NCBI GenBank assembly: GCA_036172245.1
Contig: JAYWIR010000049.1
Coordinates: 434,001-498,000, forward strand
Length of the DNA: 64,000 nucleotides
Source: Raillietiella orientalis
Taxonomy: Eukaryota
Direction of reading: 5' to 3'
Shown: positions 10,021 through 47,529 of the stretch, piece after piece
How positions within the stretch are numbered: the stretch's first letter is position 1
How the letters are laid out: every line of letters starts with the position of its first letter
Made by a program: the position numbers and the translations under genes
The notes under the pieces: generated by a model
The model's input: only the letters and a program-made list of their open reading frames with translations
Told to the model about the DNA's origin: nothing
Databases searched by the model: none

Positions 10021-10022
10021 AA

Positions 10023-15700: not shown

Positions 15701-16219
15701 AGTCCAAACTCGTCGGAGAGCTTCCGATACGCCACTTTTCCTCCGGTATCCCTGAACTGGGCACTGATTACCGGTATATTCAGATCGCCCACGATAGCGA
15801 CTATGTCCTTTGGTGCGACCTTGCAGCGCAGAAGATCCCGCACATCGATGCTTTTCCGAGTGGGGTCCGTAAACGTTGACCAGCAAAAGGTGAACTGCGC
15901 AGGACCAGGACATCCGAACTCCAACGATGCGGCCGGGCCACGGAGAAAAGGATTCCAGAACGGTGTGCGCGATCCTGTTCTTGATGAAGATCGCAACGTC
16001 CTTGGTCTGCCTCTCTCCCGGACTCAAGTACAATGTAGCATCCAGTCGCTGTTCGAGTTCGCGGCAGATCTGGTCGTCTGTTTCGTAGGTCTCTTGAAGG
16101 CAGATGATGTCCTCGCGCTCGACGTTACGCGCGATCCTTCTTTTTCCCTGGTCTCGCATCCCATTCACATTCCAGAAGGCAATCTTGACACTCCAGGAGG
16201 AAGACAGGAAGAAACACAT
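12749..16219 (-). pseudogene. B1 ORF2: APE endonuclease - reverse transcriptase - Cys/His motif, frameshifted
   Basis: WNVNG, ICLQET, VNVYGP, GDLN, IDHV, SDH; AAGPD, WRPISI, DMEKAFD, GIRQGDALSPMLF, YADD, KYLGV; CNACGIRDTH. Confidence 0.9.
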
Positions 16220-16231
16220 GGGCAATCACGT

Positions 16232-17655: not shown

Positions 17656-17770
17656 GATGTTTTCCTTTGCCTCTCGGAAACGATCTCCTCGGGTCCTCCT
17701 TCTTCTTCTTAGGCGTCTGTGAGTTTGAAATGTACAAACAATTTCGGAGCACACGCAAGGTTAGCACTAC

Positions 17771-25930: not shown

Positions 25931-26693
25931 GGGGAGCCCAGGGGTTATTCCTGGGAACGTGGCAGTGCGGCTGCCGCCACCTGATCGGGAGGGACGGATG
26001 AAGGAGGGGGTGCATCCCGCACCGGTTCTCCCTCCTACATGGGGGCCGATTCTGCTGCAGGTCTCATCGGTGGGTGTGGGTGGGTATCACCGACGTCGCC
26101 TTCGAGCGAGCGGCGGAAGAGCTGGCTGCCTCGTTGCAGCCGGCCCCTTCCAAGGCTGGCAAGAAGGCAGTAAGGCGTCCGGCTTCTTCCCAAGAGTAGG
26201 TAACTTCCGACCCCGAGGCGGAGGTCGAAAGCACAGCTTCCATCACCGCGGCATTCCGCAGGAAGGCTGGACGAAAGTCCACCAAACCCCGGAAGATCCT
26301 TCCCCTAGACGAAGGGGTGGACATGGCTTCTGGGAGCGAGGGTGTCATGAGCGTGGGAGAATCGCGGAACTCGTCGCTCGAGAGACTCCCACGCTCGGAC
26401 ACGGAGGGGATGGAAGGGGTGGAGGTCGAACAGGTGCCTCATATGCCTGAGGAGGCCGAAACTCTGATTGCTATCTCATCCGCCTCGGAAGAGGCGGTTT
26501 CCCCCACACCAACAACTTCCCAGCAGTAATGCCGGGAATCTCCTCCCGCCGTCGTCTGCTCATCGCCGTTTGGAACGTCAACGGCATGACAGACGCCGGC
26601 AGGAGACGAAACAAAGCCGCCCTGCTAGGATCCTTCGACCTTGCTCTGCAGAACAAGCGCGGGAGATCGAGAGGATCTCCGGAGGGCAGCTGT

Positions 26694-26749
26694 TTGTCAC
26701 CCGGGTGCGCCGGGGCGTTTATTAAAAACTATCCGGGAACAGAGTTCCT
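26694..26749 (-). mobile_element. 56-bp 3'-terminal stub of family E
   Basis: Near-identical to 26765-26820; bounded by target copies at 26681-26693 and 26750-26764. Confidence 0.65.
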
Positions 26750-26764
26750 GGAGAGGGCGGCTGT
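26750..26764 (+). repeat. TSD GGAGAGGGCGGCTGT (partner 30474-30488)
   Basis: Exact 15-bp direct repeat at both ends of the family E element. Confidence 0.85.
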
Positions 26765-29700
26765 TTGTCACCCGGGTGCGCCGGGGCGTTTATTACAAAC
26801 TATCCGGGAACAGAGTTCCCGGACAAATGGGAAAACAAGATACGAAGGGGGTGGGATCCCCGACACGCAGGTCGGTATGCTGAAAGTCCGGAACGGGAGG
26901 GAGGGAACCACAAATACATTACTATAAAAAATAAAAATAAAAATATGGAGGGCAGGGGACAGGGGTCTTTCGTGAGTCCGTTCCTTCCTTTCAAAACCGG
27001 CGATGGATGCCGGCGATCTCTCTCCTCACGCTCTCTGGTAGGTGGGCCCACTCGGCAGCCGACGACATGTTTGCGCTGGCTAGTCCGGTGAGCTGACGAA
27101 GGATGGCCAGCTTCTCCAACTCTCGGTGGACCTTGTCGATGGCGCGGGTGCAACACACGGTTGCAACGACAGCACCCAAAGACAGGCCGCCTGGCGTGAA
27201 GAAGCGGCGCATCAAGTCTCTCGCGGTGTCCCCCTGGTGTAGGAGAGCTGAGGCCAGCCTCCGCCACAGTCCTAGGAGGGCACCGCAGTCCAGGAGCAGG
27301 TGCGGGGGCGTTTCCACTTCCCCGCACCGCTTACAGTTTCGGGAGACAACTCCCCCGGAAACACGGTTCGTCCGCTGGTTGGAGTGAAAACCCCAATGCA
27401 CCAGCATGATGACGTCCTGCTTCCACAAAAGGGGGAACACAGAAGTGTTCAAACAGGAGGGAGGGACCACAAGTTCTTCGGGGGGCACACTCAAGTGTTC
27501 ACTCCACCGAAGGAGTCCCTTCGAGATGTGGCGAGGCGTGGCGGCGTCTGCCAGCTCGCAAGTCCTCCAGCCGCCAATAGGTCGTGTTGTTCCTGCGATG
27601 GTGCAGGCGACCTCCCATCTCGCCGGTTCGCAGCTGTCATCTCTTACCCTGAGGGCTGACAGTCCGTCGGCGAGGGGGGTGAGGGCCAGGCCGGTCCACT
27701 TCTCCTGGCTGCTGCAGACCTCATCCACCGTGCAGTACGGGGAGTGGTGAACGCAACGGAGTTCCAGGAGGGAAACATCCTGGTGCTTTGCCTAGCCATA
27801 CAACGGTTCCTGCCGCCAGGCTTGAAAGTTCGTTGGGCGGCAGGAGATCCATTCCTGGGCTGCCAGGAGCCGGTAGAGGGGTTTCAAGGGGAAACCGAAA
27901 CTTGTCGTGGGGTGCTCCGTGTGCGGACGCAGCGACAGAAGTCCGTCGCTGCCGGTGCAGCGCCGCAGGAGCAGGCGCGCAGGAGCGCACCACGGAGTGG
28001 ACCAAAGGTTGGCGCACAGGGCCAACATTCGAAGCTGCACCTGCAGCTCGATTCTCTCCACCGTCAGGATGCCTAAGCCAGCATCCCGACGCGGAGCCGC
28101 CAAGTCTTTCAGGCGGATCCTGGACCTCGCAGGACCCCACAGAGCGTTTCTCAACAGGCTGTGCGCCTGGAGCTTCGCCGAGTAGGGGGGCGGGCAAACA
28201 AAAAACAGGGGGCGCAAGAGGGGGGCAACGGAGGTGTTTCATATCGCGGCCCGCTCCGACAGGAGGAACCTGCCATGCTGGAACGGGCTCAGCGCACTCG
28301 CAGCCTTCCGAAGGCAGTCCGACCACACTTCCACTGGGCTGATGTTCCCCAGCGGAACGCCAAAGTATTGGAAGGACGAAGCGGTCGGGATCCCCGGGCG
28401 GATCCAGTCGGACTGCCCCTCCCACGCCGCACCAATGGGTACGACCACGCTCTTGCTCCTGTTTACGCTCATGCCCGCTCCCCGGCGGATCAGCTCGAGG
28501 AAATCCTCGAGACTGGACGCCGAAATGGTCATGGGTAAGAGGAGAAGCAGGTCGTCAGCATATGCCGCCACGGACGGCGTTCCTGGACAAAGGCTCGGCC
28601 GGTTGGCCAGCGTCAGCCTGTACGCCCTCAGCACCAACTCAAAGAAGATGTTGAAGAGCAACGGGCTTAAACTGTCGCCCTGCCTGATGCCCCGCCGCAC
28701 CGGCACGCCGTACACGTGGCAGCCGCTGAAAGAGATGGAAATGAGCGCGTGGCGCCAGCGAGCGCGCAAATACGCCACGAGGTGCACCGGGAGACCGAGG
28801 CGTTCCAGGAGCTCCAGCAGGAGATCCTGATTTACGCAATCGAACGCCTTGCGGAGATCGACCGCGACCGCCAAGGCACCCGGCGCTTCCTCAGGCCGAA
28901 TGCAGCAACGCCTAGCCCTGGCAGCCGCAGATGCGGTTGCCTGGCTGTCGTGCGCCACGCAGCGTTGCAGCTCGAGCCACGTGCGCGCGAAGAACAGGTT
29001 CGCCTCCATGGACCGCCCGGGAACAGCGTAAGACTGCTCCGGACTTACCACGGATCCAGCGATCCTACCTAGGCGCGCGACCCAGAGCCTGGAGAACAAC
29101 TTGACGTCCGCATCCACCAAGGTGATGGGACGCCAGTTGCTTAAATGGCGCATGTCTCCGCCTTTCGGCAAGAGACGCACCCTTGCTGAGCGAAACGAGG
29201 CCGGGACATTGCCCGTCTCTCGCATCAGCGCAGAAAGCCTCAGCACCAGGGGGATGAGTTCCACCGCGAAGCACTGGAAGAACTCCGCAGGCAGACCATC
29301 CTCACCTGGCGCCTTGCGCTTCTTGAGGCCCGCTATGGCGGAAGACACTTCTTCCGCCGTGAAGGGCAAGTCAAGAGTGGAGCGTTCCTCCTCGTCGACC
29401 GCAGGGGAATCCGCCGGCAGAAGCAGCTCCGAGAGACTGAGTTCCGTCGGCTCCCTAGCATACAACGAGGAGTAGTAGCGCTTTAGGAGGCGGCGAATGT
29501 CGGCCGCGCCCGAGCACTCCAGGCCCTGGTCGTCGAGCAGACAAGCCGCTCCTGACTGCCAGACCTGGCGCTCGGCCTTGGCCTTGTACTCCGCAAGTTA
29601 CCGGACGTCCGGGCATCGGGAGAATTGGCGGGCCTGCAGAAACTCTCTGCTGTTGGCCACGCCTTCCCCGAAGCCAAGGGGAAGCAGGCGCAAGGGGAAC

Positions 29701-30473
29701 CGGCTGTAGAACTCGCGGACCGATCTTTTCAGATCGTCCCAGTCCACGAGCTCTCGGACGGCCAAGGTCCGGAGATGCTGACGGAGGTGCTCCGCAGCCA
29801 CCGGATTTCTCAGCCAGTCGGCCGGCAACCTCCAGACGTGCGTCGGAGGGCCCTTGCCAGGCAGGAGTAGCTCAAACTCCAGCCTGTAGTAGTCGGAAAG
29901 CTCGGACGGCACGGGACCTCTTCGACCCACCCGACAATGCAGGTGATCATCGAGGAACACATGGTCCGGCAAAGCACGCATCCCGGGATCGTCGGCCAGC
30001 AAATTCGAGGCGTGCACCGACGCGCACACCTCGTTCACCAGCCGTTTCTCCCGGCGACGGTGAGACTCCTCCGATAGCGCGTGGACGTTGAGGTCCCCGG
30101 CTACGAGGTGAGCCACGTCGGGGCCGGAGTTGCTGAGCCAGCGGTCGCGCAGTCTCTCGAAAAACTCCAGTTTCTCGGTGTGACGCGCGGAGCCGCTCGG
30201 CGCGTACACGTTCGTGACGACAAGGTTGATCGATTCGGACCACTTGAGAACAAGTTGGCCCACACGACCTTCCTCGTCGAAACAAACGCTCCGCACCGCT
30301 CCCGCCACCCTGCCCCGGACAAGGAATGTGACTCCGCAGGTATTCTGGGAGCCTGACCTCCAATGGAGCGTCCCGCCTGCGCGAACTAGCAGATCGGCCG
30401 CTTGCTGCTCGGAGAGTGCGTGAATCTCCTGCAGCAGGGCCAGATCGAAATCGCGCAAGACGTTGGCAACCAA
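26765..30473 (-). mobile_element. Family E LINE, 5'-truncated near the ORF2 start (3.7 kb)
   Basis: EN (LLQEIH, NVYAP, GDLN, PDHVF, SD), RT, CKRCGEVETPPHLLLDC, 3'UTR with terminal hairpin, 15-bp TSD. Confidence 0.9.
26991..30473 (-). pseudogene. Family E ORF2; the RT domain is open over 28239-29465
   Basis: KAPGEDG, WRPITL, DLRKAFD, GIRQGDSLSPLLF, YADD, FQYFGV; stops and frameshifts between segments. Confidence 0.9.
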
Positions 30474-30764
30474 GGAGAGGGCGGCTGTGGTATCGGTGTG
30501 AGACAACCAAGAGTTGCAATGTTGCCTACCTGCTTCGGCCAGCTGTTGAGGCCGCGGCGCAGGGCGTGCGGTTCGACGATCAAGGTCGTGTCAGCCAGCT
30601 GATTCTCAGGTGGTCCGACTCCATCGACCTCATCGTCACGAACGTGTACGCCGCGAGTAGCGCGGACCTGACGACCAGGAGAGAATGGAATGAATGTTTC
30701 CTTTCCCACCGGCGCGACTGGCTGAGTAAAGCAGGCTTGCGGAATGCCCATCTGTTTGCAAACG

Positions 30765-30778
30765 ATTTTAACGTTCTC
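30765..30778 (+). repeat. TSD ATTTTAACGT(TCTC); partners 32206-32219 and 45306-45315
   Basis: Direct repeats bound both family A insertions and encode (D)FNV of the host endonuclease. Confidence 0.85.
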
Positions 30779-32205
30779 CACGTCGGGATGCCGGTCTTGG
30801 CATCCTGACGATGGAGCGGAGCGGACTGCAAGCGCAGTTCCGGATACTGGCACTGTGTACCAAGCTATGGACTTCCCCCCTGTGTGCGCCTACGCGCATC
30901 CTCCTACGGAGGAGTGCCGGCAGTGTAGGAATTCTTTCCTTGTTGCCAGTCATGCGTCACAGAAAACAGGGATTTAGCTATCCTTTCAGGCAACTCGCCA
31001 CCCTGTTGGAAGCCAATACGTGGATTTCCTGCCGCCCAATGAACTACGATGCTTGGCGGCAGGAAACTATTGATTCCTGGGCTGCATTCCTAGGAATGAG
31101 CCGCGAAGATCTTCGCCTCCTGCGTCAATTTCAACCTTCGCCACTCCAAGATGTGATCCAGGACCAAGTGAAGTTTTCCTCCTTGGCCGCCACGCTCCTC
31201 GCCGAAGCATTGTCTGACCTCGAGGTTCGAGAAGACAGTAGCCAACCGGCAAGGTAAGAGTTCTCCTGCACCATCGCGGAAAGAACGGAGCTCCTCGGCG
31301 AATGGGACACGATCGAGCTGGCGGACACTGCCACTCCTCGTGCTACAGCAAACGGACTACTTCGGTGGGGAGAAGCTCTTGTTGTTGCCCACGAGGAACT
31401 GATAGTCCCTCCCTGCTATTTGGACGGTTCGGTATTTCCCCTTGCATGGAAGCAAGACGTCTTACTCTTCTTGCACTGGGGATTGCGCTACAACGAGCGG
31501 CGACACCGAGTTTCCGGTGGGGTGTCTTCTCCCTACTGTGCCCGGTGCGGGGCGACGAAGTCGTTCCTGCACCTTGTTTTCGACTGCGGTGCCCTTTAGG
31601 AACTCTGGCGGAGGTTAGCAGTAGCACTCCTACCACCAAGGGACACCGCCCTTGAAGTGCTGCGACGGTTCTTCCAACCGCAAGGACTTTCGACGGCTTC
31701 GATGATTTCCACAGTTGGTTGCATCCGCGCCATCGTCACGGTCCGAGACGTGCTGGAGAACACTGGTCAGCGATGCTGTGACACCAGGAAGGCAGCCGAC
31801 TTCATCAGTGCGGCAGCTAGGTGGCGACACTTGACCGAAAACGCAACGTAGCTCACCAGCATCCATGGTCGGATTACCTATGGTTTGGTGATCCATCTCC
31901 ATTCCCATTCCATTTCATTTTTGTTTTCGCGTCCCACCTCCCATTCGCTCCGTAGTGCTTTTGGAGCTTTTACTCTTTGTGTTTTCCGGTAACTGAGGGG
32001 CGTCACCAAAGATCCCTGGCCCATTCCTCCCATTTAGACTGTTCTTTTTTGTTTGTGGTGCCCTCCTCCCCATTCCTTCACGTTCTTCCGTTTTCCTAGC
32101 CTACGTGCCAGTGGTGTATCTCCGTTGCTGGTGTTCTTTTGTCGTTGGTTGGAAACCACTTTTTCCATCCAACGACATAAACGTCCCGGTGTGACTGGGT
32201 AAGAA
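30779..32205 (+). mobile_element. Family A LINE, 5'-truncated (1.4 kb)
   Basis: Nearly identical to 43879-45305 (offset 13100); CARCGATKSFLHLVFDC; terminal motif at 32177-32200. Confidence 0.9.
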
Positions 32206-33720
32206 ATTTTAACGTTCTCTTTCACGAGAGACGGACATGCATTTGTGTCGCTCTGCTCCTAAGCTGTTTGGTTGTGCTTGTGCGTCCCACTGCTTAGTCC
32301 TAAGGATGAGCAGTGGTGAAGACAACTTGGAAGTCGTCGAGCCAGTGGTTCCTGAACTTTCCGCAGTTGGAACGATGGCGACAACCTTTGCGAGCCCCGC
32401 GCCACCGGCCAGGAGCTTCGCGGACGTGGCAGCATCTGCAGCCGTAAAGGGGCGACTCCCCGACCAGGCAGAGTGGCAGGCATATGTAGCCCAGGGCTAC
32501 AAACCTGCTCTCCGCTATAATGTAAGTGGGGTAGGCTTAGCTGGGCAGGAGTTCGAAGACGAACTCTTCCGTGTGGGAGTGCGAGAGGAGGACCTGCTAG
32601 CCCTCATGCCTGTTCTTGCATTGGGCTATGTTAAGGTCCGATGCCATCAGGCTGCCCTTTTGCAGCGGCTCCTCCGCACTCCCTTGTCCATCCGCGGGAA
32701 GAAAGTTTTTCCCTCCGCGATGGATGGACGAGTCTTTTGTCGTTGTTCTTTCGGACGTAGAGCCGGAGATCAACGACAAACAGTTGGTGGACGCGTTGGC
32801 GAAATTCGCCACCGTTCATGCGGTGTGTAGGAAGGGGAGTTCCTACAAGAAGTTCCCTTTCTTCCACACAGGATTTGCTGCGGTTAGGATAACCGTTCCC
32901 AACCGCCGCACTCTGGCTGCTACGTTACAGGTCAAGGCACGGTCGTTCACCTGTGGTTCGCAGGCAAAGCTCGCGCGTGCGAGCAATGCGGCAGGGAAGG
33001 AGATCGGGAGCAAGAATGCCCTTCCCCGAAGTGCCGCTATTGCAAGGAGTCCGGGCACGAAATCAGGCAGTTCCCGGACATTGCAAGAAAGAAGGAGGCT
33101 GCTAGACTCCGGCGCGCCAAAAAAAGCGCAGAGTAGCAAACAGCAGTTTCTAAAAAACAAGTGGACTCGCGTAAGCTCGCGAGAAAACAGGGCAGGAACG
33201 TAGTCCCTAAGTCGGCTTCCTCTGCCGCAAAGCCCGAAAGGGCAATCGGGCGGCAGGGAAGCCTATTAAAAAAGGACGCGAGGGCTCCGCGCGTGCCGTC
33301 ACTGATCCCGCAGCCGAAGGCGGAGTTACCGCTCCGGGAATGGGGTCAGTGAAGCCAGTTACACCGTGCGACAGCGCGAAAGGGGGACACGCGAATCGCA
33401 ATTGCGCAACAACCATCTCCTTGGGCCCGTTGTGCATTTCGGGGACTTCAATAGGAAACCCAAAAAAGGCGGCTCGGAATCTGGCGAGAAAACCCAGGAA
33501 AAGCGGAGGCGCGTTACTTGAAAACACGCCGCAACCAGTCGCATCCTCCCTAACGCAGCAGTTTTCCCCAATTCCCACAAGGGGTGGGGTAATTGATTGT
33601 TCATTTATACTACATTCACATTCACTCACTCGAAACTTTTGTTCCGCACTTTTCACTTCACTTCACTTTCACTTGGGGAGTGACCGGGGGAAGTTTACCG
33701 TGGGTATGCACTTGGGAGGA

Positions 33721-36700
33721 CTACGTATGGGTTCTTCCCTGGACGCTATTTTCTATCCTACGTAGGATATACTTGTATGTCCAGAATTGCACTTTGCCGC
33801 AGTTCCATATTCCAATTTCCTTCTGGACGAGTCCTTTCAGGATGTCCATGGGGGGTGCAACCTCTCTGGAATTCTTCATCTTCCACCATCGTATCAGGAT
33901 GGCAGTGATGAAGAGGGCAATCGTCATCCTAGCCATCGGGTTGTACAGAGGTACGTCGCCGTCTCCTTCTCCGTGCTAGGACTTTCGTGATGGTAGCGTC
34001 GGGCAGTCCTATGACCCTTTTCAGGGTCTGCCAGTCCTGGCGGATGGTGGGACACGTTGGGACGTGGAGTCTTGTTTCCCGGTCACCACACGCCTTGCAC
34101 TTTCCGTCTTCCGTGTTCCCTGTAAAGTGTTGGATCCTTGAACCACTCTGAATTCCTCCATGGAAGAATCTCAGGAAATCATCCTGAGTATTCGACGGTA
34201 GGTCACTCCTCCATAGTGGCGTGCCGATCGCCAACAGGTTGATACTGTGGCGATCGGCAGCTTCTTGGAGGGCACTGATGTCTAGATTGTCCTCTTTAAT
34301 GATTTTGCGGAGGTTTTTCCTATCTATCCTGTACCACGCGAAGTTGTTGTGGTTTTTCCACAACTCGCGGGTCTTGTGGGTGCATTTTCCCAACACCATC
34401 TCGATGTACCGGAGTATACGAGAATGGTGAAGCTATCCTCCTCTTCTCCATTCCTGGATTCTTTTTAGAGTAACTCTGGGCCGCTGGTAGATCCAGCTTC
34501 TTGTGTCGGGAGGCACGTGAAGCATCCAGGGGATCACTAGGATGGACTCCTCCTGCCAGTTTCCTGCTTTGTGGTACGATCTCCAGTTGGTGTTTTCGTA
34601 CCAGCTGTTGTTTTCTTTTCCAGGTGGGATCGATGGTGTTCCACTTCCTTCTCGGCCTAGCAGCGCAGTCATCGGGCCCTTCGAGTTGTTCAGTAACAAT
34701 GAATAGGCCCTATGCGCCGCATGCGGCCAGTCATCCCAGTGGGCGGCGATCTCCAGGATTTGTCGCGTATCCATGATTTCCATGCAATGTGCAGGCGACT
34801 TCATCCCGGTCCCACCTTTCTCCTTGGGACGACATAGCGGTTTCAGTCTTGCTCTTGGTCTGTAGATGCTCCATAAGATTTTCCTTTGCAACCTCTCCAA
34901 TTCTCTGCGGGTGTTCTTGTCCATTCTGCCAAAGGCCGCCCCGAAGAGTATCTTCGGACGGATTACTCCGTTCCACGGGTTGGCCCTCCGCTTCATGTTG
35001 AAGTCCGTCCGCGTGTACTTCGTTGCTTCTTCTGCTGCCTTTCCCAGGATTTCGATCCATAGCAGCTTCGACGCGGAGTCATCACCGATGTGGACTCCCA
35101 AGTACTTGGCGCTGTCCACCGTTAGGAATGCTTTCTCCGTGAATGAGGAGAGTTCCAGGATTCCGTCGGGCAAAAGTTGACTCTTCTGGGCGTTGATTTT
35201 TAGCCCAAGTCCTTTCTCCATCATCTCCACCACATCCAGGAACGCATACGGATCTCGTTCTTCCTTGATGAAGAAGAGAAGATCGTACGCGTAGGGCAGA
35301 TGAATGAGTTTTTGATCGTCGATCTTGATCCCTCGGAGGCGTCTGCTTCTTTCAATGAATGATGTCAAAGCCTCCATGTAGTTAACAAACAGCATCGGAC
35401 TCAGCGAGTCGCCCTGGCGGACTCCTCGTTCCATCCTGATAGCTGCTGTTTCTACTCCGTTGATCTTGATACGAAAGTGTTGATCGACTAGTATCATTCT
35501 CACGAAGTTGCTGAAGTGTTCCGGGAGACCCACTTTTCCCAGAATCTTTAGCAGCATCGCGTGGTCGATGGTAACGAATGCCTTCTCCATGTCGGTGAAC
35601 ACCAGCACCAAGTTCTCGCCGACATATCGGCTGAGTCCCACGGTGGTCTGGGCACACTTGACATCGTCCGACATGTGGCGTCCGGGCACCGCGTATGTCT
35701 GGACTGGAGAGATTAACTTCGGCATGACCTTGCCTAAGCGGTTGGCCCAGATCTTTGCCAACCACTTGGCATCGAAGTTGAAGATTGAGATTGGCCTCCA
35801 TTGGGAAACTTTGGTTAGGTCTCCACCTTTCGGCAGCAATCTCATCCTGCCCTCGTAGAAGGACGCAGGTAGTCTGCCTTTTTGTCGGATGCACAGAGTT
35901 AGCTGGTGGAACAGACGCAGGTAGTCGTGTAGGTATTGCTGGTAGTAAGAGATGGGAACATTATCAGGTCCTGCCGCCACATCCTTGCGTGGTTCCGAAA
36001 ATGCAGCCTTCAATTCGAGAAATTTTCTTCCAATTTCTTTCGCTGGAGTTCATCGATCTTCTTCTCTAAGTGGCTCAGAAAAGCATTTTGTGTCGCCGGG
36101 CACAGGCGTTGGTGCCGAAAGTGTCCCGTGTAATGCCTCTGGAAGGCGCCCACGATCTCTTCCGGCGTGTGCCGGCTGTGGCCGTCGTACTGGATGCAGA
36201 AGATGTCTGTTGCCAGGTTCTTCTTCTCCAGCACGCCGACTTCCCGTTTTATGTTCTTGAAGACGTACCGGCTCTCGTACTGGTCCCAGTACTTGGAGAG
36301 GGAGCGGTCTTCGATGTTCTGCTCCCGGTACGCTTCCTATCTCAGTCGCTTGTCCCCGTACTGCATGTTGCAGAACAGATGGACTCGATGTTTCAGGCTG
36401 TCCCAGTTGGCGACTCTTTGGATGGTGCTGGTCCTCAGAATCGCCTCGATGAGTTCTTGATGACTGGGAAGCGTCTCCAACCAGGCGGGCATGCAGATGA
36501 GCACCGCCCTTGCGTTCTGCTTCCGTCGAGGATTTTCGGTTCTTAGGGAGAACTGCACCAGCGGTTGATCAGACAGCGAAGTTGGAGTGTCGCGAAAACC
36601 CCCGATGCGGTTCTCTAGCTCTCTGCTGTGTAGGACGTGGTCGATCGGCTTGTGGCTAGCTGTTCGCCACCGAAGTCCGAACTCGTCGGACAATCGCCGA

Positions 36701-37210
36701 TACGCCGTCCTTCTTCTTGCGTCCTGGGAATAGATGATGCCGTCCAGGATATTCAGATCGCCAGCAACGATCACGACTCCTTGGGTGCGACCTTCTCCCG
36801 GAGTGCTGCATGCAGCACCTCCGCGCACCGGTGTTTTTCGATGTGTGGTTCGTACACGTTCACCAAGAAAACGTAAACGGTGGGGGACCACGCCAGTCGT
36901 ACACCGATGATTCGTCCTGGTATGCGACAGAAGACTTCCAGGATTGTGGGTCCAGGTCGTTGTTCATCAGCACCGCCACTCCATCGGTGTTCCTCTGTCC
37001 CTCGCTGACGAACATTTGCATGTTGAAGCGTCGTTCCATTTGCAAGGTGATCTGATGACCCAGCTCGTGGATCTCTTGCAGACACACTTGTCCGAGGTCT
37101 TCATGGGCGATGATCCGCACGATTCTTTTCCTTTTACTCTGGTTGATCAGTCCATTAACGTTCCAGGAGGCCATGTTGATCCTCCTAGCGATGGACAACG
37201 ACGAGGCCAT
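33721..37210 (-). pseudogene. B2 ORF2 EN-RT-Cys/His, frameshifted; RT open over 34433-36013
   Basis: WNVNG, VCLQEIH, GDLN, IDHV; WRPISI, DMEKAF, GVRQGDSLSPMLF, YAYD (mutated YADD), KYLGV; CKACGDRETRLHVPTC. Confidence 0.9.
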
Positions 37211-37219
37211 AAGGGGGCT

Positions 37220-38781
37220 CACTTAGCTTTTCTGAGCTTCTTTTGTCGGGAAGAACGTTGTAATCTTCCCGACGAAGAATCGGGCTTCTCACTACCAGCA
37301 TCGCTCTCCGTGCCGGTATGATCGGTCAATTATCGGTCGTCGATTGACCGGTCGACTTTGACGACCGCCTTGCACGGGAGGGTCTCCACGTTGACCTTCT
37401 CGCAGTACGCCGCCTTGACTTCAAAAAGCTCAGTCTCCAGCTTTTTGCCCTCAGAAACCTCTACCAATCTGTTGATGTCCTCTTGGACCTCGCAGATGCG
37501 AGCCAGAATCTGTTCCTGCTGCACCGCGGTAGGCTCCTGTCGGACCTCCTCTACCAGCTTCACCACCTCCATGGTGAGCTGCAGGGTCTCTTGCGTCGCC
37601 GGGGTGGGTTCGCTAACTTCCATTTGTTCCCCATGTGGCGCGCCATCCTGCTCCGCGGCCTTCTGGGAGGGTTTCTGCTCCTGCACGAGCATACTCTTGC
37701 CGCCTTTTCGTACTTCTACAAAGCCGTCCGCCAAAACCGGAGCGGCCTCCTTCGCCTTCCTCAGCTTCTCTACTTTTTGAGGCTTTACCACTTCCGCCAG
37801 AACCTTCTCCCGCACGGTGGAGCCCACGCATGGTCCGGTAGTTTGTGAACTCCGGACAACACCATCTCGCATGCCCCGACTCTTTGCAAAAGGAGCACAC
37901 CTCGGGCATGTCGCAGCCACGCACCTGGTGTCCCTGCTTCCCACAGCGGAAGCACCGAGACCTCGGACACACGCTCATCCTATGTCCGAAATTTTTGCAA
38001 CCAGTACAGAACACCGGTTGTTGCCTATATCGGATGAAGACTTCCTGAGAGTCTCCATCGATGTGCACGATCCCTGGGATCTGCGCCTCCTTTGCCAATT
38101 TGATCTTGGCGATGACATCGCCGGAAAAGATCCTCCCCTAGAAGTTCTGGAATTTCACCTCCAGAACTTCCCCGTACCTCGACAAAAAGGCTCAGACTGT
38201 CTGCTGGGTGGTGGTGATGCCGATGCCACTGAGAAAGACGGTCGTGTACGGCATTTCGCCGATACCGCGAACCATCCGTCCTTGGATGTTGATGCCCTTT
38301 TCGGTCAGGGTCTCCCTCAAGGGTTCACTATCAGTGTACATCGTGAAGCCCGACGTGATTGGGATGATCGCTTGGATGCGATCGAAATCCACATTCTCCC
38401 TATAAAGTGTCAAGTACACTTCTTCAATATTGTCAAACTGGATTAGTCCGGTTTGGAAAGTGATTGGCTTCGATGCCGGACTGATCCGGAAGATCGGCTC
38501 GTCCACGTTCTCTATTTTCCCGCTCTCGGGCTTTCCAAATTTCCGCTGGGCATTCGAATGGACCGCGGCTACCGCCGCGTACGGAATTGGCCGCGCCGTC
38601 GCAGCGGAGGAAGATGGCGTCGCGACCTGCGAGCTCCCACCACATTGCATGCCGTAGGCTTCGCCGGGGGCGCTGCCGCGGGCGCAACCCGCAGCGACTT
38701 CGTCGCTTCGCCATCGCCGCACGATACCTCCATTCCCAGGGGGAATGTCGGTCTCTCCTCCATCGCGTGGTCTGCTTGCAT
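37220..38781 (-). pseudogene. B2 ORF1, frameshifted
   Basis: PYAAVA; three knuckles CTGCKNFGHRMSVC, CFRCGKQGHQVRGC, CSFCKESGHARWCC. Confidence 0.85.
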
Positions 38782-39005
38782 CCTGGCACTCTCTGGTTGA
38801 TGCACTCTCGCCGCCGTCGCTGTGGGACGCAAGCCCTCCTCTATGGTTCTGCTGCAGATGGTGGTAAATGTTCTCTGCCGCACTGTCCCTAGTGGTTGGC
38901 CACAGACACTGGTTTTCACTTATTCACTTCCCCGCTTGGGGCACGCAAAAATTGCCGCAGCAGTGATGGTGCTCACTGCCTTGGCGGGGTATTCGGTATA
39001 GTTTT

Positions 39006-39021
39006 TTCCTCGTCTCAGCAG
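39006..39021 (+). repeat. TSD TTCCYCGTCTCAGCAG (partner 41000-41015)
   Basis: 16-bp direct repeat with 1 mismatch flanking the deleted B1 copy. Confidence 0.85.
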
Positions 39022-40999
39022 TTTTTCCCCTGTCCGACTTGCGCAGGGGAGAATTTATTTATCTTAACACGTTTACAATGCTTTCTCACTTTCAGTATTT
39101 AATCTTTTCTCACTTTTCAATGTTCTGGAATCCTCTGCAAGATATGGTAGTATATCCAAGTTGGAATTCCTCCACAACTTCTGATTCCAATTTCACTGTT
39201 CAGGAGACCTTTCAATATTTCCATAGCAGGCACCTGGCTCATTCCTGTCCGCATTTTGGCCCTCCTTATTACGATCCTTTTGATAAAGAGGGCTATGGTT
39301 ATGAGGACCATCGGGTTGTATCGGGGAACATTGCCGTTCCCTTCGAAAATCCCAACGAGAATCTCCATCTTCCGCAACGGCTGCAAGTCTATCACCTTCT
39401 TGAGACTGGTCCAGTCTTGGCGCAGAGACGGGCAGGTGAGTACGTGAAGGGTGAGTATCTCTGATTCCACATGCATTGCACTTCTCCTCCTGCGGATCTC
39501 CGGTCCAGTGTTTGGTCCTAGTGCCGCTCAGAATGCCACTGTGATAAAACATCAGGAGCTCATCCTGAACGTCGGGTGGTAAGTCGCTCGTCCAGACCGT
39601 GGTTCCAACCACCAGCGGTTCCACCTGGTGGCATCCGTATCGGTTGGCGGTCACAGACAGAGCGTCGTCGTCGTTTGTTTCCTTCATACGTGCTTCTCCT
39701 ATGTTTCTCCTGGTTATCAGGCGCCAGCGGCTGGATTCCTGATTGGTCCAGACCTCTCGATATTTGTGGGTGAATTTTCCAACTATCTCCGTGGTTAGCT
39801 GATACAGCCGCATTTTTTGGTGAATGCCACTTAATGCGAACTGCTCTCACTCCTTTATGGTGATCCTTGGATTCTCGGATATCCATTTCCTGGTGTCCGA
39901 TGGGACGTGCAAAAACCACGGGATAATCCTCATTAGTTCGCTCTCCCAAATTTCCTTACTTCTAAGCACTATTTTGAGGTGATGGGTGTTGACCAGTGCC
40001 TGTTTCCGTATCCAAGTAGGGTCGATGTTTCTCCACCGTCCTTGTTTGCCTATTAGGGCTAACATTAGGCCTCTCGAATTGTTGACCAACTGCGAGTAGG
40101 CTTTGTGCGCTGCATAAGGCCACTCATCCCATTTGGTGGCAAGTTCCAGTTGTCGCACGTCCAGCAGATGCACGGACCGTTTGAGCGATTTCATCCCGGT
40201 CCCACCTTTGTCTCGCGGTCGGCACAGGATTTTCAGCCTGACCCGCGGCTTAAACTCTCTCCATAAAATCCTCCATTGTAGTTGTTCCACCTGCCGGCAC
40301 GTTCCATCGTCTACTCGACAAAAGGCTGCTCCGAAGAGCACCTTAGGAAAGAGAACTCTGTTCCACAGGTTTTCCCTTCGCTTCAGGCAGAAGTCTAGTC
40401 GTACGTATTTTGCTGCCTCTTCTCTTGTTTTCCCCAGGATTCCTTTCCACATTTCCTGCGAAGCCGAGTCATCGCCGATGTATACTCCTAGGTACTTGAT
40501 GTTATCCACTACTCGGAATCCTGCTTCCTCTAAGGCGGCAAGGTCCAGGATTCCGATGGGCAACAGTTGGGATTTCTGGGCGTTGATCTTCAAGCCCAGA
40601 CCATTCGCCATAGATTGGACGAAACCAAGGGACTCATGCTGATCCTTGCCTTCCTTCAAGAAGAAGAGCAGATCATCCGCATACGCCAGGTGCGTCAATC
40701 TGTCGTCGTCAAGGCGTATTGCTTGGATACGGCCGCCATGGTGGACCAGTGACGAAACCGCTTCCGTATAAACTACGAACAGCATCGGACTAAGGGCGTC
40801 TCCCTGACGGATTCCCCTTTCCATCCTGATGTCTGCCGTATCATTTCCGTATCGTCCCCGGGGGGTACGTCTCCATGTTGTTTTCCTGTGCCTCCTGGCA
40901 ACGGTCTCCTCGTATCCTCCTTCTTCTTAGTCGCCTGCTAGTATTTTTCAAAAAAAAAAAGCACAAACAATTTCGCAGCACACGCAGGCTAAGCACTAC
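39022..40999 (-). mobile_element. Family B1 internally deleted copy: ~150-bp 5' end joined to the RT-3' half at 40850/40851
   Basis: 39022-40850 matches 12652-14482; 40851-40999 matches ~17630-17770. Confidence 0.9.
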
Positions 41000-43900
41000 T
41001 TCCCCGTCTCAGCAGGAGAGGAGCGATCTCCCGACTTGCTAGGAGGCTGTGCCATTGCCGCCTTTTAAGGGTGCAGCGAAATCTGCGCACGAGGCTGTTG
41101 GGGAGGAAAGCCCGGAGACGTTCTTGACGAAAGTCGAGGAACCCTCCGAGGAAATGGACGGCTTTTGGACGGTTGTGGAGAAAGAGAGAAAAGTAAAATC
41201 TCCCAAAAATTCTCCGCAACCTACTTCCAAGAGCCTCTGTAAGATAAGCAACTTCGAGCCAAGGTTCCCTCTGACGCTGCAAAGGCCAACGCCGCTATCG
41301 CGCATAGCGCGAAAGCTGCGATCGCCGGGAGCGATGCCCCGGTGACCGCGAAAAAGGGAGTGACCGCGGTTCCACCGCGAGCACTTCCGAATCGACGCGG
41401 CAGGTGAGTCGTGAAGCGCTCGAGCGTCGATCAGACTCCGAAACGGAGTCTGATATCACCGCCGCACGTCGGATCACCCACGCGGAAGCCGTAGCGAGAC
41501 GGGCTAATGCCCTGAGGCGCACAGCGCATGCCGCGAAGGAGCGAGAGCTCACCCCGGAACATCAAGCGACGTTACCCGGAGACGAGCACTCGATTTCGTG
41601 CAGCACCTTGGAGGACGGTGGCGACCGTGATCTCCAGCCACACTGCTGCTTACTGTCCGCTCGCCGGTGAAAACGGGCAAAAAGCCGCCGACTTCCCAGC
41701 ATTAATGCGGGAAATCGCGTCTTCTCGTCGTCTGTTCGCCGCGTGTTGGAACGTGAACGGACTGCAGCACGACTAGAAGAGGCGATTGGTAGCGAACGCC
41801 CTGTGCCCCTTTGACCTCACGCTCCTGCAGGATATTCACGTAATCTACGACGAGCAGGCAGCCGATTCGAGGAACGCTCAGGCGGAACGCTACTTTGGCT
41901 GTGCGGCGGCCCATACACGTGCGGCGTCGCGTTCCTCGCAAGAGGAAAAATGGCGGAAGCGGTGCGTGGTGTTCGCTTCGACGACGACGGATGGGTGGGC
42001 CCACTTGCTGTCAAGTGGTCCGTGTCCATCGATCTCGTCGTGACGAATATCTACGCGCCGAGTGGCTCTCGCTACCTCGAAGATGGAATTGCGCTCTTCG
42101 AGGAAATGAAATGCCACTGTCTCAACAACTCCAGTTCCCAAGTGGCGCACCTAGTCTCAGAGGACTTCAACGTCCATCTGCTCTCTGACGGAAGGAGCTG
42201 CCCGAGGGAGCGCAAGTTGGCCATCGAGATTGGTCGGCGTACCTGAGATGGTCGGCGTACCTGAGATGGAAAGGTCGCCGGATCACATCTTCCTTGATGA
42301 CAACCTACACTCTTGTGTGAGAAGGAGAGACAGATTGTCGTTCGTACTTTCTAACATCACAGGTTGGAGTTCGAGCTCCTTCCTCCAGGCAAGAGGCCTC
42401 CGTTGAGAAACTGGAGGATGCCGGCGGACTGGCTTAGCCATCCGGAGGCGGCGGATCATCTTCGTCAGCACCTCCGGACCTTCGTCATCCGCGAACTCGA
42501 GGACTGGGATCATCTAAAGAGATCAGTCCGCGAGTTCTGCGAACGGTTTCCCTTGAACCGGCTTCCGCGAGGCTTTGGAGAAGGGGTCGCCAACAGCAGG
42601 ACTTTTCTGCAGGCGCGCACCTTTCCGAGACGCGCGGATGTCAGCCAGCTTGCGGAATACAAGGCCAGAGTCGAGAGCCAGGTCTGGCAGTCTGGAGTTT
42701 CATCAGGGCTTTGCGGCGGAGCTCGTCCCCCTGGTGCTTAGCCTCTCTTCGCTGATAAGGGTTTCAGGGCATCTCTCCAATTCCTTCCGCTCAGCGAGTG
42801 TGCGTCTCCTGCCTGGAGACACACGCCATCTGAACAACTGGCGTCCGGTCACCTTGGTGAACTCAGACTTCAAGTTGTTCTCCAAACTGTGGGTCGCGCG
42901 ACTAGGAAGGATCCTTGGTAAGGCCGGAGCAGACTTACGCTGTTCACGGGCGGTCCATGGACGAGAACCTCCTGTTCTCTTGCTCCTGGATGCAGCTGCA
43001 GGAGCGCGTAGCGTAGCAAAGCCGGACCGTGTCAAAGGCTGCTGCCTAAGACAGACGGTATCGGCAAAAGCGGCAGGAGGGTACGCCTGGTGCCTTGAAG
43101 GTCGCAGTCGATCTCCACAAGGGGTTCGATTGCATAAACCAAAGACTCCTCTTGGAGCTCTTGGAACGCCTCGGTCTCCCGGCGCAACTTTTGAATTACT
43201 TGCGCGCTTGCTGACGCCACGCGCTAACCTGCATTTCTTTTAGCGGCTGCCACGTGTACAGTATTCCCGTGCGCAGGGGCATCAGGCAGGGCGACAGTTT
43301 AAGCCCGTTGCTCTTCAGCATCTTCTTTTAGTTCGTGCTGAGGGCGTACAGGCTGACGCTGGAGTACCCGCCTAGCTCTTGCCCGGAAACGCTTCCCGTG
43401 GCTGCCTATGCAGATGACCTGCTTCTTCTGCTCCTCATGTGCACCCCAGCGTCCAGTATCGAAGATTTCTTCGAACTGATTCGTCGGGGAGCGGGCGTGA
43501 GCGTGAACAGGAAGAAGAGCGTGGTCGTTCCTGTGAGAGAGTCGTGAGAGGGGCAGTCCGACTGGATCTGCCTGGGGATCCCCACGGCAGGGTACTTCAA
43601 GTACCTTGTCGTTCTGCTGAGCGACCTCGGCGATGCCGAGGCGTGGTCGGACGGCCTTCATAAGACAGAGTTGGCCGCCACTCCCTTCATTAATGGCAAG
43701 TTTACCTTGACGAAACGGGAGTCTCTTTGGAACACCTTCGTGCCCCCTCTCCTCCTAAGACCCCTGTTTTTTCTCTTGGACCCCCCCTACGCGGCCAAAG
43801 AGCGGGCAAAACACCTGCTAAGGAACGCTTTCTGAGATCCGACGCGATCCAGGATCCGTCTCAGAGACCTGACGGCTCCACGTTGGGATGCCGGTCTTCG

Positions 43901-46900
43901 CATCCTGACGATGGAGCGGAGCGGACTGCAAGCGCAGTTCCGGATACTGGCACTGTGTACCAAGCTATGGACTTCCCCCCTGTGTGCGCCTACGCGCATC
44001 CTCCTACGGAGGAGTGCCGGCAGTGTAGGAATTCTTTCCTTGTTGCCAGTCATGCGTCACAGAAAACAGGGATTTAGCTATCCTTTCAGGCAACTCGCCA
44101 CCCTGTTGGAAGCCAATACGTGGATTTCCTGCCGCCCAATGAACTACGATGCTTGGCGGCAGGAAACTATTGATTCCTGGGCTGCATTCCTAGGAATGAG
44201 CCGCGAAGATCTTCGCCTCCTGCGTCAATTTCAACCTTCGCCACTCCAAGATGTGATCCAGGACCAAGTGAAGTTTTCCTCCTTGGCCGCCACGCTCCTC
44301 GCCGAAGCATTGTCTGACCTCGAGGTTCGAGAAGACAGTAGCCAACCGGCAAGGTAAGAGTTCTCCTGCACCATCGCGGGAAGAACGGAGCTCCTCGGCG
44401 AATGGGACACGATCGAGCTGGCGGATACTGCCACTCCTCGTGCTACAGCAAACGGACTACTTCGGTGGGGAGGAGCTCTTGTTGTTGCCCACGAGGAACT
44501 GATAGTCCCTCCCTGCTATTTGGACGGTTCGGTATTTCCCCTTGCATGGAAGCAAGACGTCTTACTCTTCTTGCACTGGGGATTGCGCTACAACGAGCGG
44601 CGACACCGAGTTTCCGGTGGGGTGTCTTCTCCCTACTGTGCCCGGTGCGGGGCGACGGAGTCGTTCCTGCACCTTGTTTTCGACTGCGGTGCCCTTTAGA
44701 AACTCTGGCGGAGGTTAGCAGTAGCACTCCTACCACCAAGGGACACCGCCCTTGAAGTGCTGCGACGGTTCTTCCAACCGCAAGGACTTTCGACGGCTTC
44801 GATGATTTCCACAGTTGGTTGCATCCGCGCCATCGTCACGGTCCGAGACGTGCTGGAGAACACTGGTCAGCGATGCTGTGACACCAGGAAGGCAGCCGAC
44901 TTCATCAGTGCGGCAGCTAGGTGGCGACACTTGACCGAAAACGCAACGTAGCTCACCAGCATCCATGGTCGGATTACCTATGGTTTGGTGATCCATCTCC
45001 ATTCCCATTCCATTTCATTTTTGTTTTCGCGTCCCACCTCCCATTCGCTCCGTAGTGCTTTTGGAGCTTTTACTCTTTGTGTTTTCCGGTAACTGAGGGG
45101 CGTCACCAAAGATCCCTGGCCCATTCCTCCCATTTAGACTGTTCTTTTTTGTTTGTGGTGCCCTCCTCCCCATTCCTTCATGTTCTTCCGTTTTCCTGGC
45201 CTACGTGCCAGTGGTGTATCTCCGTTGCTGGTGTTCTTTTGTCGTTGGTTGGAAACCACTGTTTCCAGCCAACGACATAAACGTCCCGGCGTGACTGGGT
45301 AAGAAATTTTAACGTCCACCGGAAACCGGATGGGCCGAATCATGAACGCGACCTGGTCAACGAAGTGTGCACGGCGGTGCACACATGTAACTTGTTGGCC
45401 AGTGAACCGGGGATGGAGGACAGCATCGATCACGTGTTCCTTGACGAGCACCTGTGCACTGGCGTGGGCAGGTGCTGCAAGTTACCGTCCAAGGTGTTCG
45501 ACCATCGCATGATCGTGCTCCAGATTCATCCGCGCGACAGGGGCCCTCCCTCGTCAGCGTGACATTTTCCAGTGGACTGGCTGAAGCTCCTTTACGCAGC
45601 GGAACAACTCCGCGCGTTCATATGGAGCATCAGGCTGCAGAAACTTCTGGATTAAGACCGCTTCAAACGGTCGGTCCAGGAGTTCTGCGACCAGTTCCCT
45701 CTGCACCACCTCCCTGCGGGATTTGGGGACGGGGTACGTAACCAGAAGTCGTATCTACAGGCCCGACGTTACGCCAGGACCCCCTACATTTGCAGGCTGG
45801 TGGAATACAAAGCGGGAGCTGAGAGGCAAGCCCGACAGTCAGGATCGGCCAGCTTGCTGGACGATCAGGGCTAGGAGCATTCGGCACCCGCTCAGATCCG
45901 CGGTCTGCTGCGGCCTTTTTATTCCTCCCTGTACGCCAGAACGCCTCCTAAGCGAGATGTCTCACGACTTCTGCTTCCGGAAGGCGCTCCAGCGATCGCA
46001 GAGGAGGAGAGAAAGACCCTCGACGAGCCTTTCACAATGGGCAAGATCATCTTGGCCATCGGAAAGCTCAAGAGGCGCAAGGCTCCAGGGGAGGACGGCC
46101 TGCCCGCGGAGTTTTATCAAACTTTCGCGGCTGAGCTTACCCCCCTGGTACATCAACTCGCCTTGCTGATCCGCGAAAGAGGTGACGTTCCCGCCTCGTT
46201 TCGTTCGGCAAAGGTGCGACTCCTCCCTAAGGGAGGAGATCTGAGGAGCATGAACAACTGGCGTTTCATCACAATAGTGAATGCGGACGCCAAGTTGCTA
46301 GCGAAGGTTTGGGCAGAGCGCTTGGGACGCCTTCATCAGCCCGGAACAGGCATATGCTGTTCCCGGGCGAAGCATGGAGGCGAACCTGCTCCACTCTTCC
46401 ACCTAGCTAGAGCTCCAACAAGAAAGGAGCTTGGTGCGCAGCCGAAATTCCGGTGCGTGCGCCGGCAAGGGGTCGGATGGTCGGGTGGGGGAGAGAGCCC
46501 TTGAGGTCGCAGTCGACTTGCGGAAAGCATTCGACTCCGTCGACCAGAATCTCCTGCTGGAGCTTCTGGAACGCTTAGGCTTCCCGGCCTCATTATTGGC
46601 CTATCTGCGCTCCAGCTGGCGCGACGCGATTATCAACCTTTCTTTCAGCAAGCAGACCGTACACGGCGTGCCTGTGCGGCGTGGGATACGGCAGGGAGAC
46701 AGGCTGAGCCCCTTGCTCTTCAGTACCTACTTTGAGTTGGTACTGAGAGCGTACAGGGAAACTCTGGCGCACCTGCCGCACGACTGCGCCGGTACGCCTG
46801 CGGCTCCAGCATACGCGGACGATCTTCTGCTGCTGCTCCCTATGTCCACCCCGGTTTCGGCGGTCGAGGAGTTCTTCGACCTGCTGAGTCGGGGAACCGG

Positions 46901-47529
46901 ACTGACGGTGAACAGGGCGAAGTCGTCCGTGATGCCAGTTGGTGCGGCGTGGGCAGGGCAGCAGGACTGGGTCCGTTTGGGGATCCACACTGTGAGGTAC
47001 TTCAAGTACTTTGGTGTGCCGTTGGAAGACTACTCCCCTGCGGAAGCGTGGTCCGGCTGCCTCCAAAAAGTAGATACGGCGATGGGCCCGTTCCGAGGCG
47101 TCAGATTTTTCCTGCCTGAACGGGCCGCGGTTTGGAACACGTTCGCGGCTCCTCTCCTCCGTTTCCTGCTTTTCGTTTGCCCCCCCACAGAGAGAATAAG
47201 GCGGGGAGGCGGGGCCTCAGGCTGTGGAAGATGAGGTGGAAGAACAACCTTCCCGCTCCTGTTTCTGCACCTTTGCTCCTGACAACGGTGCAGCAGAACG
47301 CCCACCATTACGTCGGTTGGCGACTTCTGCTGCTTGCCCTGAGGACAGGAGGCGTTGCGGCAAGGGATCTGCTGCCACCGGGGACGTCATTTCGTCCTGT
47401 CCTGAGAAACGTTTCCGAGCAGGTCGCAAAGAGCGAAGAACCTCCGGAAATTACATCCAGAGGGCTCCCCAGATCACAGCCGCCCCCTGCTGCCTAGCAC
47501 CTAGTACGTGGGAGACGAGATTTCCGAGG

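Follow-up and report, generated by a model that had tools for sequence, protein, structure and literature searches.

Tandem copies of one LINE at a single site in the endonuclease codons of another LINE within a nested repeat region of Raillietiella orientalis

A 64-kb stretch of the Raillietiella orientalis genome (64,000 nt of contig JAYWIR010000049.1, hereafter the window) holds a nest of long interspersed nuclear elements (LINEs) in which two copies of one LINE, A, stand in tandem where a related LINE, H, encodes the D-F-N-V residues of its endonuclease. Both A copies that lie at this locus (2/2 in the window) occupy the same site with exactly the same 3' junction, and we somewhat favour the reading that they arose by two successive target-primed insertions of a site-specific L1-like LINE, the second of which would have re-used the upstream copy of the target duplication. 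The nest as a whole is built in layers: H carries a LINE called E2, a double insertion of the LINE E (E-mini plus E) and the A pair (A-trunc plus A-full), and A-full in turn carries the LINEs Y and X-trunc. All results, including the census of A copies, refer to the window.

The A pair in the endonuclease of H

The domain content of the window is that of LINEs, as a Pfam scan of six-frame open reading frames (ORFs; 131 at 26-50 kb, 251 in total) found solely LINE domains and no host gene among the 251. The nearest database protein, P0001 (an ORF from a JGI metagenome), is 62% identical to E and 72-75% identical to H, while all other database protein matches reach at most 31% identity. The layout of A-full was derived from reading its junctions together with alignments, and the parts of H and of the A pair are as follows, with ORF2 for the second ORF, RT for reverse transcriptase and UTR for untranslated region.

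26529..26692, + strand: H, start of ORF2 (MPGISSRRRLLIAVWNVNG...) and first part of the endonuclease, ending ...ISGGQL in translation
30488..30774, + strand: H, middle part of the endonuclease, WYRCETT...AHLFANDFNV
30765..30778, + strand: target-site copy 1, ATTTTAACGT plus TCTC, the upstream copy of the 14-bp duplication
30776..32205, + strand: A-trunc, a 5'-truncated LINE A of 1,430 bp with the C-terminal part of ORF2, including a CCHC motif, and the 3' UTR
32206..32219, + strand: target-site copy 2, ATTTTAACGT plus TCTC, in which TCTC is the first 4 nt of A-full
32216..33561, + strand: A-full, 5' segment, with the 5' end TCTCTTTCACGAGAGACGG and ORF1 up to ...AACGCAGCAG
40856..45305, + strand: A-full, 3' segment, with the rest of ORF1, endonuclease, RT, CCHC motif and a 3' UTR with a terminal hairpin motif
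45306..45315, + strand: target-site copy 3, ATTTTAACGT, followed by the host's original CCAC
45316..47190, + strand: H, C-terminal half of the endonuclease (HRKPDG...IDHVF) and RT to about residue 466 of P0001 (RVT_1 2.4e-15)

The junctions, read directly from the letters, define the pair. The 10-mer ATTTTAACGT has just three exact matches across the window (30765, 32206 and 45306), always on the + strand, against a chance expectation of 0.09 and with none of 100 shuffles giving three. Exact matching thus bore out the first-pass annotation, which had placed the three copies so as to bound a 5'-truncated A and a full-length A, in tandem at one site and in the orientation of the host H. The 15-mer at the 3' end of A, GTGACTGGGTAAGAA, occurs twice (32191 and 45291) with ATTTTAACGT immediately after each, and the 3' junction GGGTAAGAA/ATTTTAACGT is identical in both copies. 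Self-comparison of the window aligned 30776-32215 with 43876-45315 at 99.17% identity; the 1,440 bp differ by 12 substitutions and are free of indels. The longer repeat, the 14-mer ATTTTAACGTTCTC, has perfect matches only at 30765 and 32206; the third copy reads ATTTTAACGTCCAC, which is the uninterrupted sequence of the host. The CTC that precedes the truncation point also occurs within A at that point (GGCTC/CACGT, the slash marking the break), so that the first 3 nt of A-trunc are ambiguous with the duplication, in line with the possible microhomology noted earlier.

The host frame could be followed across the insertion in the same way. Residues 1-169 of the E endonuclease align with 30263-30775 and residues 166-329 with 45305-45790, both on the + strand (tblastn), which places the interruption of the H endonuclease at residues 166-169 in E numbering. 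The inserted block together with one duplication copy (30775-45315) measures 14,541 bp, and because this is a multiple of three the H reading frame is restored on excision. On the left the host reads ...NAHLFANDFNV and on the right NFNVHRKPDG...LVNEVC...IDHVF, in agreement with family E (AHLVAGDLNVH...LVNEVC...PDHVF) just as the first-pass annotation had it. Upstream, 26484-26692 (+) is homologous to the ORF2 start of A (41690-41824) and of A2 (18415-18653), a second locus of the A family, in the same orientation (tblastx), and the H text MPGISSRRRLLIAVWNVNG...EQAREIERISGGQL resumes at 30488 as WYRCETTKSCNVAYLL..., matching EQAGEIEKLAGGALIWRCG... of A2. The C-terminal third and the 3' end of H were not found in the window; its RT homology ends abruptly at about 47190, after ...LLFVCPP, and the next 0.9 kb (to 48050) has no match elsewhere in the window.

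Turning to A itself, the copy first described as a full-length A of 13 kb (32216-45305) is full-length, yet A proper accounts for 5,796 bp of it (32216-33561 plus 40856-45305), the rest being the nested minus-strand Y and X-trunc. In this inner part (33.5-41 kb) the Pfam scan placed two RT domains, fragments of endonuclease and a zinc knuckle, all of them on the minus strand. Its endonuclease spans 41786-42642 (with its own DFNV codons at 42163), its RT spans 42521-43727 and is alignable to 44216, and its CCHC motif lies at about 44630-44690. The endonuclease (41875-42642) is 51% identical to that of E (1e-71, tblastn) and the RT (42909-43727) is 64% identical (5e-91, tblastn), while residues 482-594 of P0001 map to 30775-31116 in A-trunc. 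The CCHC motif YCARCGAT(E/K)SFLHLVFDC is readable in both A copies, followed by an in-frame TAG, and has no Pfam match at E <= 0.01.

The domain matches and insertion features are those of LINEs throughout the nest, with target-site duplications, 5' truncation and no long terminal repeats. PF00078 (RVT_1) matched E (1.8e-21), Y (5.6e-28) and H (2.4e-15), and PF03372 (Exo_endo_phos) matched E (1.2e-10) and X-full (1.1e-8), the latter a LINE within the A2 locus. Duplications measure 10 and 14 bp for A, 11 and 14 bp for E, and 6 bp for X-full and Y, and the truncated copies are 1,430 bp (A), 56 bp (E) and 1,829 bp (X) long. A ends in GGGTAAGAA, E ends in GGGTGACAAA, and X and Y end in 4-5 A; none has a poly(A) tail. 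Many LINE clades lack poly(A), and the absence of a tail bears on whether these are L1 proper, not on whether they are LINEs. Judged by its letters and alignments, A is an L1-like LINE of the apurinic/apyrimidinic endonuclease (APE) type of about 5.8 kb that encodes an APE-type endonuclease and an RT and has a putative CCHC motif towards the C-terminus of ORF2.

Other same-site insertions and a shared 3' end

The layout of the A pair recurs in the same host, where E has entered the H endonuclease twice in the antisense orientation, at the codons ISGGQL/WYR.

26693..30487, - strand: double insertion of E in the H endonuclease (RVT_1 1.8e-21, Exo_endo_phos 1.2e-10)

In plus-strand order, GAGGGCAGCTG (26682-26692) is followed by a 56-bp 3' end of E (E-mini, 26693-26748/52), by GGAGAGGGCGGCTG (26750-26763), by E itself (26764-30473, 3,710 bp, its 5' truncation falling where the endonuclease begins) and by a second GGAGAGGGCGGCTG (30474-30487). 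Perfect matches to the 14-mer GGAGAGGGCGGCTG are confined to two points of the window, the boundary between E-mini and E and the 5' junction of E; GAGGGCAGCTG is an older 11-bp copy with one mismatch on the far side of the E block. The block measures 3,795 bp, again a multiple of three, and the last 3 bases of GGAGAGGGCGGCTG match the E sequence just upstream of the start of E-mini (TCCG vs TCCA). The simplest reading is that E-mini would have entered first with an 11-bp duplication and that E would then have entered at the upstream copy of that duplication, with a 14-bp duplication reaching 3 nt into E-mini.

A third case lies inside A-family ORF1, where members of an X/Y family of LINEs sit at one nucleotide in both A-full and A2.

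33562..39015, - strand: Y, a full-length X/Y-family LINE of 5,454 bp nested in A ORF1 (RVT_1 5.6e-28)
39022..40855, - strand: X-trunc, a 5'-truncated X-family LINE (39022-40850) plus 5 nt of filler (40851-40855)
11718..19268, + strand: the A2 locus, which serves as a control, with A2 interrupted by X-full (12652-17628, minus) and the duplication CGGCAG / CGGCGG

Y comprises an RT (34436-36049), an endonuclease (36340-37222), an ORF1 zinc knuckle (37616-38137) and the tail GGGGAAAA; its Exo_endo_phos and zf-CCHC matches in Pfam are weak, and CAGCAG stands on both sides of it (33556-61 and 39016-21). X-trunc forms a tandem with Y at this site, lies upstream of it when read on the element strand, and is 93% identical to 12648-14483 of X-full. 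A2 itself (11718-12651 plus 17635-19268) is 78% identical to A, and X-full sits in it at the nucleotide homologous to the Y and X-trunc site in A. The junctions read ...AACGCGGCAG / X / CGGCGG CCCCGGTGGG in A2 and ...AACGCAGCAG / Y, CAGCAG, X-trunc / CCCCGGGGGG in A, and all 3 of 3 X/Y-family 3' junctions read GGGGAAAA(A)/CTGCYGCGTT on the element strand. Because Y and X share only about 55% amino-acid identity in the RT, the tandem of X-trunc and Y is not a DNA duplication, and since identity is 93% between the X copies but 78% between their hosts, these would be independent insertions at one nucleotide, at least two and probably three in number. Here too the truncated copy is the upstream one, but the order of X-trunc and Y could not be read from the junctions. 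We consider this site the strongest evidence in the window that LINEs here can be site-specific for other LINEs.

The elements of the nest also share an end. At least 8 of them (A, E, E2, J1, J2, K1, K2 and M) finish in ATAAACGYCCCGGCG-N5-GGGT plus a short A-rich tail.

6923-6977, 19268-19322, 21134-21188, 24285-24339, 26764-26818, 45251-45305, 52966-53020 and 62751-62805: the shared 3' ends

RNAalifold predicted a 5-bp terminal stem at this shared end, with no compensatory pairs in the alignment, so the stem is a prediction short of proof. The motif is retained even by the 56-bp E-mini, and it fits recognition by the RT of the 3' end of its own element and the mobilisation of truncated or defective copies.

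Origin of the A pair

In the scheme that we somewhat favour, we infer the order of events, the chemistry of target-primed reverse transcription and the specificity of the A endonuclease or ribonucleoprotein as follows. A would have integrated by target-primed reverse transcription at 5'-ACG^ATTTTAACGT-3' in the D-F-N-V codons of H, and the insertion of a full-length A would have made the 10-bp target duplication. The upstream copy of that duplication would have kept the original upstream flank and the 10-bp site and would still have been a substrate, at which a second A RNA would have been inserted, 5'-truncated at 1,430 bp. The second top-strand nick would have fallen 14 bp downstream and hence 4 nt inside the resident A, whose 5' end begins TCTCTTTCACGAG, thereby producing the ATTTTAACGTTCTC repeat, and the truncated 5' end would have been joined at the CTC microhomology. 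Y and X-trunc, of a different LINE family with a fixed site of its own, would have entered A ORF1 later. Under two retrotranspositions, placing the full-length A first explains ATTTTAACGTTCTC as a 14-bp duplication, whereas placing A-trunc first needs a coincidence of T plus CTC of about 1 in 256; we therefore take the 14-bp repeat to be, most probably, the target duplication made by the second insertion.

Under the event orders proposed for the A and E pairs, the newer copy would be upstream in both. As only the upstream duplication copy keeps the upstream flank plus the first 10-11 bp, this polarity suggests recognition of roughly that stretch, in keeping with the 10 bp or so around the bottom-strand nick reported for the TRAS1 and Tx1L endonucleases (PMC1919474). 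The repeated same-site insertions, of E in H and of X/Y in both A-family copies, lend credibility to site-specific integration as their common cause. An AT-rich nick preference of the L1 type was rejected as the cause of re-hitting: the A site is not TT/AAAA on the element strand, and the sites used by E and by X/Y are rich in GC.

Several observations weigh against repeated site-specific insertion of A. Within the window the A pair marks only one target locus, and the stagger is not constant, the first-event duplications measuring 10-11 bp and the second-event ones 14 bp. In A2, the sole other A-family copy, the 5' junction that can be seen falls within ORF1 sequence resembling that of H and not in an endonuclease, and the 3' flanks of the eight elements with the shared motif all differ, so that no family-wide rule can be read from the window. 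In both A copies ORF2 is interrupted by the same two in-frame stops (TAA, 31255/44355; TAG, 31597/44697, the latter within a stretch locally shifted relative to E), and the copies differ at just 12 of 1,440 positions. Decay is general: the endonuclease-RT part of A-full holds 12 in-frame stops plus one frameshift or more, against 4-5 stops in H and 2 in E. The shared stops and the decay of A-full indicate that the A copies separated after decay, by trans-mobilisation of a defective A, by gene conversion or by DNA-level duplication. A likely trace of DNA-level exchange lies elsewhere in the window, where 9330-9740 and 23490-23900 are about 98-100% identical over some 400 bp on a background of about 75-80%; this tract is probably a gene conversion between H-family 5' regions whose copies are 14 kb apart, and it lies 7-20 kb from the A pair.

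The decay just described is the ground for the rival that we take most seriously, though we hold it to be rather doubtful: A would have decayed in place, unequal exchange or a template switch between the 10-bp duplications would have produced a tandem A-A, and a deletion at CTC would have removed the 5' part (at least 4.4 kb) of the upstream copy, with no repeated site-specific integration. The 99.17% identity and the two shared ORF2 stops, alongside 12 in-frame stops in the unshared part of A-full, speak for such a history, as does the middle junction (tail, 10-mer, TCTC, A 5' end), which is the expected product of exchange between flanking duplications; CTC is found at both ends of the proposed deletion, and the conversion tract and a joint of A2, J1 and the H-family element H2 attest to DNA-level events nearby. 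This route nevertheless needs two rare events, a deletion that starts within 4 nt of the 5' end of an element and unequal exchange over only 10 bp of homology, which is very short, and the E pair would need the same coincidence, there within 3 nt. The tandem of X-trunc and Y shows the same layout with two different families, for which a DNA-level route is impossible. The first-pass interpretation stands in that two A copies occupy one site in the D-F-N-V codons, whereas the refuting scenario that it named, a segmental duplicate, keeps some probability given the shared in-frame stops and the heavy decay of A-full.

The shared defects would also fit a read-through dimer, in which a tandem A-A donor was transcribed from inside its upstream copy and the resulting RNA (the 3' 1.4 kb of A, the 14-mer and a full A) was inserted once in H; such an RNA accounts for both copies, for the internal 14-mer and for a single outer pair of 10-bp duplications. 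We think this very unlikely, since a 7.2-kb RNA would have to be copied in full and the T plus CTC of the left junction would reproduce the internal TCTC by a coincidence of about 1 in 256; the dimer would also merely shift the double insertion to the donor locus, so that same-site insertion is still implied. An assembly artefact, with mis-joined repeat reads creating the truncated copy and its junctions, is conceivable in a region made of repeats throughout, and we give it scarcely any credence: the 12 differences are spread across 1.4 kb, the three junctions are each unique and clean, there are no Ns, and the same layout in E and in X/Y argues against misassembly.

Target codons, known LINEs and the rest of the nest

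The A site lies inside the D-F-N-V codons of the H endonuclease, and these residues are established as catalytic. The GDLN of E aligns with the GDFN of human L1 endonuclease chains, which were the sole PDB matches and weak ones (E-values 0.046-0.05); the R1Bm and TRAS1 endonucleases were not among PDB matches at E-values up to 10. Across the six endonucleases of the window the motif codons read GAT TTT AAC GT in H, GAC TTC AAC GT in A and A2, GAC CTC AAC GT in E, and GAT CTG AAT AT in X and Y, and ATTTTAACGT is carried by H alone. The motif of A itself, GACTTCAACGT, is present at 42163 as the first-pass annotation stated. The first-pass ideas that the target could escape only synonymously and that A may avoid its own sequence rest on one target.

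H is moreover decayed, with several stops and with N in place of G before the D, and this weakens any inference from a catalytic motif. In-frame stops within the LINE protein alignments number 40 (18 TGA, 16 TAG and 6 TAA), most of them where the query has W, a pattern that indicates transition-driven decay, with CpG observed/expected ratios of 0.74-1.06 showing no strong CpG depletion. A variant genetic code with TAA and TAG as sense codons was rejected on this mix of stops, which mostly replace W. Because the in-frame stops of the window mostly replace W (TGG to TGA or TAG), the GAT TTT of H may itself reflect C-to-T decay, possibly two C-to-T changes from GAC TTC, in which case a functional H consensus need not have the site. 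If the constrained-target idea were true, intact and presumably active copies of H would be expected to carry GATTTTAACGT at the D-F-N-V codons. The broadest version of this idea is a guild of L1-like LINE families that are obligate parasites of parasites, A targeting the D-F-N codons of H, E the GGQL/WY codons of H and X/Y the A-family ORF1, with escape only by synonymous change, avoidance of the own motif and Russian-doll nests at one chromosomal place; it strikes us as unlikely.

Known site-specific LINEs target host multicopy genes, telomeres, microsatellites and one DNA transposon, and self-nesting clusters are known from Zepp in green algae. Zepp elements carry poly(A). An open-access keyword search found no report of a LINE with a fixed site in the catalytic endonuclease codons of another LINE, although such a search does not prove absence. 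A passage of one study describes the TRAS1 and Tx1L endonucleases as recognising about 10 bp around the bottom-strand nick, with specificity determined by the endonuclease, and lists APE-type target-specific LINEs that include Tx1L, which inserts in the transposon Tx1D (PMC1919474). A review of target-specific LINEs counts transposons among their targets and mentions that Utopia-1_NVit is occasionally in tandem in U2 genes (PMC4640811), and accounts of Zepp and Zepp-like L1 elements portray nested clusters built by targeting existing copies and rich in 5'-truncated 3' ends (PMC8226300; PMC3446292).

Tx1L and Tx2L of Xenopus laevis resemble A in being LINEs with an APE endonuclease whose target lies within another mobile element, but the target of Tx1L is the DNA transposon Tx1D while that of A is the coding sequence of another LINE's endonuclease; the likeness is one of insertion layout, and the putative specificity of A is read from 2 copies at one locus. 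The Zepp-like clusters of Coccomyxa, Chlorella and Chlamydomonas share with this nest the LINE-in-LINE arrangement, the 5'-truncated 3' ends and local peaks in guanine-plus-cytosine (GC) content, here 52-62% in the nest vs 42-48% at the window edges. Unlike Zepp, this nest involves several families, each with a fixed site in the coding region of another family, it has clear target duplications between the tandem copies, and its A and E elements finish in a hairpin motif and a short run rich in A in place of poly(A). R1/R2, TRAS/SART and Utopia/Keno have in common with A their precise 3' junctions, variable 5' junctions and occasional tandems at one target; their targets are multicopy sequences of the host (ribosomal DNA, telomeric repeats and U2, respectively), whereas that of A is formed by the catalytic-domain codons of another parasite.

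If LINE families do have nucleotide-precise targets in each other's coding sequences, one of them in catalytic codons, retrotransposons would offer a clear example of hyperparasitism, the growth of LINE-only and possibly centromere-like nests could be explained at the level of sequence, and nature would supply APE-type endonucleases whose GC-rich recognition sites are new. Should the second A copy instead have arisen by local duplication, this is no more than an ordinary nested-repeat region.

Searches for further relatives and for RNA genes returned little. The window holds no tRNAs, and Rfam gave no match at gathering score across the whole window and one irrelevant sub-threshold match around the A junctions, so that no 5' ribozyme was found for A. 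A metagenome scan for the A/E 3' motif ATAAACGYCCCGGCGNNNNNGGGT returned 6 loci, none similar to the window; P0001 had one distant match (26% identity) in genome contigs and no loci in viral contigs, and the protein cluster search gave generic RT clusters only.

Several further joints complete the picture of the nest, in which nested 3' ends are also found for J1 in A2, for K1 in H2 and for M in a J-like element. E2 (24285-25975, minus, 5'-truncated within the RT) is about 77% identical to E globally and 71% by BLAST, and sits between two stretches resembling H ORF1 with no clear target duplication found. At 19268-21134 the A2 endonuclease (to residue ~282) is followed by J1 (minus) and then by the beginning of an RT of the H family (20634-21133; 87.6% identity to H), the RT of A2 itself being absent from the joint, which is either a chimeric host or the product of a deletion or rearrangement. 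K1 (minus) interrupts this H-family RT at 21134, and the homologous site in H (~46302) is empty. No homology to a second H-family endonuclease was found in 9960-11580.

Two copies of a minus-strand RT fragment, F and F2 (8223-9990 and 22374-24150), are cut near KAFDCVDQ and both times adjoin an H-family 5' region. Independent insertion of H-family elements at one F-family RT site (F/H and F2/H3) was unsupported: outside the ~400-bp conversion tract both parts have diverged alike, to about 74-80% identity, so that the abutment goes back either to an old segmental duplication or to an old insertion at the same site. The RT fragment at 48051-48167 (minus) may be the other half of F. J1, which lies antisense in the C-terminal linker of the A2 endonuclease, and J2 are about 66% identical, and NCGAGTT follows both (19261-19268 and 53021-53027), a possible shared target motif.

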